Shown: positions 5,072 through 6,157 of the stretch, in pieces
Numbering within the stretch: position 1 is the stretch's first letter
How the letters are laid out: each line of letters opens with the position of its first letter
NCBI RefSeq assembly: GCF_030013205.1
Contig: NZ_CP122648.1
Strand: one strand, 5' to 3'
DNA length: 64,000 nucleotides
Origin: Escherichia coli
GTDB taxonomy: Bacteria > Pseudomonadota > Gammaproteobacteria > Enterobacterales > Enterobacteriaceae
Position numbers and translations under genes: made by a program
Notes under the pieces: model-generated
The model's database searches: none
What the model was told of the DNA's origin: nothing
The model's input: the letters and a program-made list of their open reading frames with translations, nothing else

Positions 5072-6157
5072 TTAGCTCCTGTTCTTATCTAATTGTGCAT
5101 TTCGCAATTTATCGTTCAGCACCAATATTTCACCAACTGTTTGTTCAAAACGCCCGGACTCAAGTTCAACCCCAATCGTGCGACGCCCCAATCCCATTGC
5201 TGCTTTTATTGTTGCCCCCGATCCCATAAAAAAATCCGCAACCACATCCCCCGGACGACTGCTGGCAGAAATTATCTGACGCAACATATCCGCCGGTTTT
5301 TCGCAGGGATGCTTACCCGGATAATACTGCACGGGCTTATGCGTCCAGACGTCCGTATAAGGAACGGCGGCCGATACAGAAAAATAACGCCGCAGAGATT
5401 TGTATTCCTCAAGCAGACTGGCATATTGCCGGTTCAGTTCACTGTATGTGCTGACCAGTTGCTGGTGTGGCGTTGCCAGCTCCCCACGCTGGTGCTTTTC
5501 TTCTGCAACACACGCGAACAGCGCCTGCAGTTTTCTGTAATCAGCTTCGTTCGGTAACTGCCACTGACAGGTACCAAACCAGTGCGACACCATGTTTTTC
5601 TTTCCGGTGGCTTCCGCTATCTGTTTGGACGTTATCCCCAGTGATTCACGCGCATCACGGAAGTAAGAAATCAGCGGGGCCATGACGTGTTGTTTAAGCT
5701 CGCGCTCCTTTGCCGCATAGCCATCATTTTTTGGCTGGTATGGCCCCTGATAATGTTCGGCAAACAGAATGCGCTCTGTTGCCGGGAAATACGCCCGCAG
5801 GCTTTCTTTGTTGCACCCGTTCCAGCGTCCGGATGGCTTCGCCCAGATAATGTGGTTCAGCACATTAAAGCGCTCACGCATCATGATTTCGGTGTCAGAT
5901 GCCAGGCGATGACCACAGAACAGGTAGAGACTTCCGGCAGGTTTCAGTACCCGCCAGAACTGAGCCAGACACTGATCCAGCCATTTCAGGTAATCATCGT
6001 CGCCCTTCCACTGGTTATCCCAGCCCTCGGGCTTCACTTTAAAGTATGGCGGGTCTGTGACTATCAGATCGACAGAGTTTTCCGGTAAGGTCTGGATAAA
6101 TTCCAGGCAATCAGCGTTGATTAACTCACAACTGGATATTTTTACAGTATCAACCAT
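5072..6157 (-). CDS. DNA methyltransferase, beta-class N6-adenine/N4-cytosine family (orphan, phage-type)
   Basis: DPPY motif (DLIVTDPPYF) N-terminal and FxGxG AdoMet motif (DFFMGSGAT) C-terminal; 361 aa; no adjacent restriction endonuclease. Confidence 0.8.
   Translation of the reverse strand: MVDTVKISSCELINADCLEFIQTLPENSVDLIVTDPPYFKVKPEGWDNQWKGDDDYLKWLDQCLAQFWRVLKPAGSLYLFCGHRLASDTEIMMRERFNVLNHIIWAKPSGRWNGCNKESLRAYFPATERILFAEHYQGPYQPKNDGYAAKERELKQHVMAPLISYFRDARESLGITSKQIAEATGKKNMVSHWFGTCQWQLPNEADYRKLQALFACVAEEKHQRGELATPHQQLVSTYSELNRQYASLLEEYKSLRRYFSVSAAVPYTDVWTHKPVQYYPGKHPCEKPADMLRQIISASSRPGDVVADFFMGSGATIKAAMGLGRRTIGVELESGRFEQTVGEILVLNDKLRNAQLDKNRS

Follow-up and report, generated by a model that had tools for sequence, protein, structure and literature searches.

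What does a DNA methyltransferase with no restriction endonuclease beside it do for a prophage, and is it at work in its host? We asked this of a gene at positions 5072-6157, minus strand, in a 64,000-nucleotide (nt) stretch of Escherichia coli DNA (assembly GCF_030013205.1, contig NZ_CP122648.1), which we call the window throughout, meaning the whole stretch. An earlier note, made from the sequence alone, had described the gene as an orphan beta-class methyltransferase in a moron slot of a prophage late region. Our analysis makes it very probable that the gene encodes a late adenine methyltransferase of the M.EcoGII family that would depend on the antiterminator Q and act without a recognition motif, that its selected role would be anti-restriction, and that it would be a silent passenger here. 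The parts of the gene on which the argument turns are as follows.

5072..6157, minus strand: methyltransferase coding sequence, 361 amino acids (aa), assigned to the M.EcoGII family (open reading frame, ORF, with an ATG start; Pfam PF01555; RefSeq WP_000228659.1).
6044..6055, minus strand: codons for catalytic motif IV, DPPY, aa 35-38 (single DPPY match; family alignment).
5393..5719, minus strand: helical linker, target-recognition domain (TRD) with a helix-turn-helix (HTH), and charged helical linker, aa ~147-255 (helices of an AlphaFold2 model; weak HTH_3 match).
5216..5230, minus strand: codons for motif I, FMGSG, aa 310-314, which binds S-adenosylmethionine (single F.G.G match; family alignment).
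5072..5125, minus strand: divergent, longer C-terminal tail, aa 345-361, and stop codon (family alignment; AlphaFold2 model).

That this is a real, intact DNA methyltransferase ORF is confirmed. The protein matches Pfam N6_N4_Mtase (PF01555) over aa 29-340 with E=1.5e-42, and a motif search of the protein returned one DPPY and one FxGxG. Motif IV hence comes before motif I, as in the beta class, and this order holds only when 5072-6157 is read on the minus strand; the earlier note had named no strand. The earlier description of a beta-class enzyme with DPPY ahead of FxGxG is thus borne out. In an alignment of 93 family sequences, D35 is invariant and P36, P37 and Y38 are conserved at a level of at least 90%; within FMGSG, G312 is invariant and F310 nearly so. 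When the window protein was aligned with 113 family members, it departed from positions of at least 95% consensus at four sites: S197C, H232Q, F278Y and S315A. None of these falls within DPPY or FxGxG. Inactivating mutations in the catalytic motifs, which the earlier note had named as the outcome that would speak against a working enzyme, were thus looked for in both motifs and none was seen.

The gene's 3' end is unusual. DNA homology to the alleles of Shiga toxin (Stx) phages ends at ~5140, and the C-terminal tail is modeled by AlphaFold2 as an extension of helix 334-360. Perhaps this divergence marked a prophage deletion junction? We rejected this idea: two intact relatives (loci L015 and L017) have the same 361-aa form, and the junction lies at ~3104. 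C-termini in the family vary in both length and sequence, with usual forms of 348-352 aa.

We then compared the protein with characterized enzymes. Against M.EcoGII, identity is 85.4% across 343 aa with no gap in the TRD; it is 86.9% against the reconstructed ancestor Anc291 and 71% against Anc284/SUPREM. The sequences of these three were taken from Supplementary Table S1 of PMC11551740, a machine-read PDF with a few obvious reading errors, so that the identity to M.EcoGII is good to about +/-1%. Identity is 91% to L24 of phage phiP27 and 85% to the enzyme of phage 1720a-02, which Murray et al. named as "very similar" to M.EcoGII (PMC5778455). The NCBIfam equivalog cut-offs for YhdJ and CcrM were not reached (NF008572, 108.9 against 292; NF050803, 73 against 830). 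We conclude from these comparisons that the window methyltransferase is a member, and an ordinary allele, of the already known M.EcoGII family. It is not an unknown orphan: ~85% identity to M.EcoGII runs through its full length.

What does this membership predict about specificity? M.EcoGII is non-specific on DNA (PMC5778455). It methylates up to 99% of the adenines of duplex DNA in vitro, and single-stranded DNA and RNA are also substrates. M.EcoGII, Anc291 and SUPREM have all been found active by experiment, and all three methylate RNA without a sequence motif. Among enzymes whose recognition site is confirmed, M.PflMI comes closest, and it shares only 27% identity with M.EcoGII. Its high identity to tested non-specific enzymes puts the window protein well inside the non-specific cluster, and on this basis we expect it to methylate adenine without sequence specificity.

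The predicted structure has the architecture published for M.EcoGII. AlphaFold2 modeled the methyltransferase with high scores (pLDDT, the predicted local distance difference test, 95.7; predicted template modeling score, pTM, 0.90) as a Rossmann core interrupted by helices. The central stretch is all helical (147-158, 160-173, 177-184, 187-194, 204-220 and 231-255), and HTH_3 matches weakly at aa 167-193, with E=0.031, under the Pfam cut-off. The published model of M.EcoGII has a TRD formed by a four-helix bundle that contains an HTH, residues 160-237, plus a long and charged helical linker, which the site-specific M.PflMI lacks (PMC11551740). Compared by description, the window helices 160-173, 177-184, 187-194 and 204-220 and the long helix 231-255 agree with this account. 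Hence, the HTH-like segment that the earlier note had pointed out is there, as a weak HTH_3 match in a helical region of the model, but it is no insert: judging by the model, it is the normal target-recognition domain of the family. Within that domain the window residue is the family majority at 62 of 78 positions and differs at about 16. The segments of the dimer interface (residues 97-110 and 116-140) are the same as in M.EcoGII save for S98N, which is the Anc291 residue; an apparent H103I difference was a machine-reading error in the PDF copy. Among solved structures, the closest by sequence are beta-class adenine methyltransferases, namely 8URK/9C3U (M.BceJIV), M.RsrI, CcrM and MboIIA (E 1e-23 to 1e-14), and they match in the catalytic core only. 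A Foldseek search of the PDB likewise returned only beta-class methyltransferase cores (CcrM, M.BceJIV, MboIIA, RsrI and HpyAVI).

If the enzyme is non-specific, when would it be made? The surroundings of the gene bear on this question.

7648..8319, minus strand: antiterminator Q (Phage_antiter_Q, PF06323; Pfam E=1.1e-89 and annotation).
7612..7640, minus strand: pR'-like late promoter, TTGCAA, 17-nt spacer, TATATT (promoter scan; consensus match only).
7534..7561, minus strand: tR'-like intrinsic terminator, AAAACCCG...CGGGTTTT and then a T-run (sequence and fold).
6680..7393, minus strand: membrane-protein pseudogene with an internal stop, variable cargo (RefSeq annotation, ORF list, PHROG matches).
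6308..6505, minus strand: 65-aa winged-helix ORF, PHROG 331 (database names "TrmB family" or "DprA-like winged helix").
6304..6321, minus strand: terminator-like hairpin and T-run over the stop codon of the 65-aa ORF (terminator scan).
6158..6303, minus strand: structured leader of ~150 nt abutting the methyltransferase ATG (alignments, fold, covariance model).
3082..4553, both strands: cargo slot and start of the lysis cassette (annotation, Pfam, scans), made up of the next three.
4275-4553, minus strand: 92-aa ORF, PHROG 2873, a family of unknown function.
3647-3916, plus strand: DUF1883 gene.
3082-3447, minus strand: phiP27-type holin, which ends at the deletion junction at ~3104 (annotation).

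The pR'-like promoter begins 8 nt past the Q stop codon, and homology to other phages with the same Q ends at the tR'-like terminator (query base 136, window ~7535). The pseudogene sits between tR' and the 65-aa ORF. Stx phages keep the stem of the hairpin at 6304..6321, and its loop varies. In the 150 nt before the methyltransferase, from 6304 to 6157, a consensus scan found no promoter-like (sigma-70-like) site. Downstream of the methyltransferase, the 92-aa ORF has promoter-like sites at 4692-4663 and 4781-4754 and a terminator-like site at 4251-4234, and gives no Pfam match; no tRNAs lie downstream of the methyltransferase.

We observed the same gene order elsewhere. In phiP27, the Stx2a phage WGPS2 and 1720a-02, Q is followed by a small ORF, ~150 nt, the methyltransferase, and then either tRNA and stx genes or holin and lysozyme genes. 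Genomes of Klebsiella, Salmonella and Pantoea also have this order, with one or the other of these continuations, in regions that look like prophages. The Q gene beside it belongs to one of three unrelated families (PF06323, PF06530 and PF03589). In locus L010 and in Mixta, the methyltransferase lies between Q and the lysis genes and no small ORF was called. Variable cargo is found downstream of the methyltransferase or between tR' and the 65-aa ORF; in Stx phages the equivalent downstream slot holds the ileZ/argN/argO tRNAs and stxAB. Because the methyltransferase keeps its place across genera while cargo comes and goes elsewhere, it would be an early, conserved member of the late operon rather than a moron, standing just ahead of the lysis genes in lambdoid phages of Enterobacterales. 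The late region, downstream of Q, had been correctly recognized; the moron slot fits only loosely. By its conserved position and its lack of a promoter-like site of its own, we conclude that the methyltransferase is a conserved late-operon gene, not an independently transcribed one.

This position suggests how the enzyme would be used. M.EcoGI and M.EcoGII are silent in the lysogen and deleterious on expression (PMC5778455; PMC12707154). M.EcoGII slows growth when expressed and is thought to be turned on at induction to defeat restriction. In a complete phage, we propose, the methyltransferase would be transcribed only if Q-modified RNA polymerase passes the terminators after induction. The enzyme would then broadly methylate replicating phage DNA ahead of packaging, and the methylated progeny would evade adenine-methylation-sensitive restriction in the next host. 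In the lysogen it would be kept off, since blanket methylation harms. Two terminators together with Q dependence offer a simple basis for lysogen silence. The general statement, made earlier, that orphan methyltransferases of phages normally protect phage DNA fits this scheme.

Several points weigh against so direct a reading. About 15% of residues, and about 20% of those in the TRD, differ from M.EcoGII, and two of the TRD changes, S197C and H232Q, might confer some sequence preference or lower activity. Both the activity and the expression of the window allele are inferred from its sequence. All promoter and terminator calls in this work are consensus matches. With the repressor region lost, as described below, the amount of Q in the cell is hard to predict. 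The literature proposes anti-restriction as the enzyme's natural role, and we found no demonstration there by phage knockout. Family, motifs, predicted fold, position, terminators, and the lack of an own promoter-like site and of a nuclease partner come from the present analysis; non-specificity, lysogen silence and toxicity come from the literature; and we infer that the window allele behaves in the same way and that anti-restriction is the function under selection.

How widespread is the gene? It has a match in 1,894 of 5,426 complete E. coli genomes (~35%). An identical gene, annotated by RefSeq as "DNA-methyltransferase" WP_000228659.1, occurs in ~30 complete E. coli genomes; of those listed, nearly all are from pigs (enterotoxigenic E. 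coli, ETEC, and O139:H1). Some 1,700 further E. coli genomes have a gene with a DNA identity of 80-90%. It is also present in 38 phage records, mostly Stx2-converting phages, phiP27 and 1720a-02. An apparent homologue with 57-60% identity and 27% GC (L215, from Logan SRR8137545, and P0126) was discarded: it is Stx2a-type sequence in which every C is read as T, probably an assembly of bisulfite-converted reads. Records of this kind inflate apparent diversity in protein databases.

Does the gene serve anything in the window itself? The first 25 kb of the window is 100% identical to the pig strain ETEC4069. The methyltransferase resides in the remnant of a lambdoid prophage, 20.3 kb long. At one end, where the window starts, is the tRNA-Ser next to hyaA, and at the other an integrase (19274-20293). 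A truncated O abuts ydfC (~14660-14700), the cI/cro immunity region is gone and the exonuclease gene has an internal stop. At ~3104 the 3' part of the phiP27-type holin is fused to a tail-assembly-I fragment, with loss of all that lay between, so that lysis, head and tail regions are missing; we put the junction there because more complete relatives run on into lysis genes at that point. Two further observations concern the remnant. At 555-753 on the minus strand, within the tail-fibre-assembly remnant, the sequence matches the IS009 RNA of Rfam with 223 bits, where the gathering score is 117. A ParD/ParE-type toxin-antitoxin pair lies at 10141-10703 on the plus strand, opposite to the methyltransferase, in the nin-like region of the prophage.

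We therefore have to weigh whether the gene here is a functionless relic, an intact ORF that is never expressed because there is no lytic programme to express it. We put this at about even chances, and it competes with our reading on biological role only, being compatible with the same biochemical identity. In its favor are the state of the 20.3-kb prophage, with no immunity region, a truncated O and the holin-to-tail-gene-I deletion; the pseudogene just upstream; and the occurrence of the identical allele in ~30 complete genomes, of which nearly all those listed are porcine. In strain K_EC180, moreover, an IS1 element (L001 13858-14555, equivalent to window ~6900) sits in the late-operon pseudogene upstream of the methyltransferase in a genome that is otherwise identical, which is further decay of the late operon. 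Since the prophage could not bring a lytic cycle to its end and a neighboring late gene is a pseudogene, the remnant copy is probably never expressed. Against a functionless relic, no damage is seen in the methyltransferase ORF, Q, pR'/tR', the small ORF or the leader. The ETEC4069 genome (NZ_CP122679.1) also has a second place that matches the methyltransferase gene and a second match to the Q/pR'/tR' module, which suggests another lambdoid prophage that could act on the relic in trans. If it makes the same Q, such a co-resident prophage might turn on the relic methyltransferase in this way. We conclude that in its own genome the window gene is most likely a silent passenger.

Might the natural substrate be RNA rather than DNA, with host or phage transcripts methylated late in infection? 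M.EcoGII and the reconstructed ancestors do methylate RNA, in vitro and in cells. However, the RNA activity of M.EcoGII is far below its DNA activity (~30% against ~90% of adenines), and the window protein has Q at position 179, as does the M.EcoGII clade; the E179Q change in SUPREM cut RNA methylation 3.4-fold. A biological role on RNA is unreported in the literature. We regard RNA as an improbable main substrate and DNA as the one to be expected.

Still less probable is a sequence-specific orphan, expressed from the resident prophage, that alters the methylome or gene expression of its host, as the earlier note had allowed. The missing nuclease partner, the ~16 of 78 TRD positions that differ from M.EcoGII, and the lost repressor region, which would remove normal lysogenic control, could each be read in its support. 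Yet the protein lies at 85% identity, deep in the M.EcoGII cluster (the nearest site-specific enzyme, again, is at 27% to M.EcoGII), its homologues are silent in lysogens and harmful if expressed, and the gene comes after two terminators, while the consensus scan gave it no promoter-like site. These data make altered host methylation unlikely. They also change what one would look for: a motif prediction from REBASE, which the earlier note had proposed, would mislead, since the expected product is N6-methyladenine without a motif, and we would expect no trace of this gene in the methylome of the native strain.

The weakest alternative would make the gene the modifying partner in a split or dispersed system, whether of restriction-modification or of another kind of defense. 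It could draw on the gene's PADLOC label "MTase_II" (PDLC03265, E=8e-153) and on an HNH endonuclease gene ~5 kb off in the early region, but is very hard to sustain, because a non-specific methylase could not mark "self" for a sequence-specific nuclease; M.EcoGI and M.EcoGII are silent in the lysogen; the HNH gene is small and unlinked to the methyltransferase in every related locus; the gene's neighbors in the window (the 92-aa ORF, DUF1883, the holin, the 65-aa ORF and the pseudogene) include, by Pfam and PADLOC, no nuclease or defense gene and have no PADLOC match, just as the earlier note had said of an adjoining endonuclease; and, in eight loci from seven genera and three Stx-type phages, the conserved neighbors are Q and lysis genes and no nuclease is linked, the sole candidates being a GIY-YIG gene of phiP27 and an opposite-strand AAA_13 gene of Erwinia, each of them cargo in one locus.

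Returning to the late methyltransferase of the M.EcoGII family, we wondered what lies between its terminators and its start codon. The ~150-nt leader at 6158..6303 has homologues in other loci (L002-L004, L006-L010, L013, L112, L113, L134 and L217), and alignments show that it is more conserved than the flanking coding sequence. Its fold is more stable than that of shuffled sequences (z-score -3.7). The consensus structure has five helices and 36 pairs, with 95.6% of cells paired; five pairs are changed on both sides, a value reached by none of 500 shuffles, though support from covariation is modest because the sequences are very similar. In L010, for example, a 14-bp hairpin has changed from GGCTGG/CCAGCC to GGCAGA/TCTGCC with pairing retained. 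Helix 3 is formed by pairing of GGTCACAAGC with GCTTATTGATC. A long-range helix pairs the 12 nt directly 5' of the AUG, and no Shine-Dalgarno sequence is present at the usual distance before the methyltransferase AUG.

A covariance model of the leader matched once in each locus, at high score and in every case right against the methyltransferase ATG; this was so for 50 of 51 sources and for Rosenbergiella, Enterobacter and Mixta. In the window it matched only the leader site; in two loci there was a weak match on the opposite strand at the same site. The leader was not found in an Erwinia locus or in a locus whose methyltransferase is only 52% identical, and Rfam gave no match in 4200-7700 even at E<=1. 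Two other searches added little. A locus search with a narrower family alignment brought up nothing beyond near relatives in E. coli, all with 86% identity or more, and was of little use for covariation, and a scan of contigs with a 15-base leader pattern gave mostly chance hits among the matches listed, only those in L112, L113 and L134 being real.

Upstream of the leader, the 65-aa winged-helix ORF shows a conservation of 79-85% between E. coli and the genera Klebsiella, Salmonella and Pantoea, and it usually, but not always, lies directly upstream of the leader and methyltransferase. Could the leader encode a peptide? We rejected such an ORF (MGGWWV...), as neither its length nor its sequence is conserved. 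That the leader hairpin is a palindromic DNA operator is less likely than an RNA structure, because one-sided changes of the G-U type keep RNA pairing and L010 has the hairpin without the small ORF. By analogy with the com-mom operon of phage Mu, the 65-aa ORF, the terminator hairpin and the leader might form a dedicated gate that acts after antitermination to hold back a toxic enzyme; we offer this as a tentative idea of low probability. The combination of leader and small ORF upstream of the methyltransferase may be new, and such a gate is not known to have been described for the M.EcoGII family.

In itself, the finding adds one allele to a common and well-characterized family of phage methyltransferases, and little changes. 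M.EcoGII, however, is a widely used tool for chromatin footprinting and RNA labeling that is hard to express through its toxicity, and how phages turn such an enzyme off and on is worth knowing.

How does the window system compare with those already described? The closest is M.EcoGII itself, which with M.EcoGI comes from E. coli O104:H4 C227-11 (EGT69837.1; Murray et al. 2018, PMC5778455). The two share the beta-class order, the architecture of TRD and charged linker, a prophage location and the absence of a nuclease partner. They differ in that M.EcoGII has 349 aa and the window enzyme 361 aa, with a longer and different C-terminal helix tail and ~50 substitutions, among them S197C and H232Q, where the rest of the family hardly varies. 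The methyltransferases of Stx-converting phages (phiP27 L24; the "DNA methylase" of Stx2a/2c phages; 1720a-02 AGR48369) share the small upstream ORF, the 150-nt spacer and the place after Q, and are 85-91% identical to the window enzyme, as measured for phiP27 and 1720a-02. There, ileZ/argN/argO and stxAB follow the methyltransferase, whereas in the window it is followed by the 92-aa ORF and DUF1883, without tRNAs. With M.BceJIV (8URK/9C3U), M.RsrI, CcrM and M1.MboII, the window enzyme shares the Rossmann catalytic core with DPPY and FxGxG; those enzymes differ in being site-specific, with ~20% identity, a match limited to the core and unrelated TRDs.

The comparison with Mu concerns control. 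In Mu, the small ORF com stands ahead of mom, as does a leader with a stem over the site where translation starts, and Com is a zinc finger. Like com-mom, the window system would place a small ORF and a leader before a DNA modifier that is toxic and kept silent in the lysogen. The small protein of the window is a predicted winged helix, in contrast to the zinc finger of Com, and the modifying enzymes are unrelated, so that the likeness would be one of control and not of descent.

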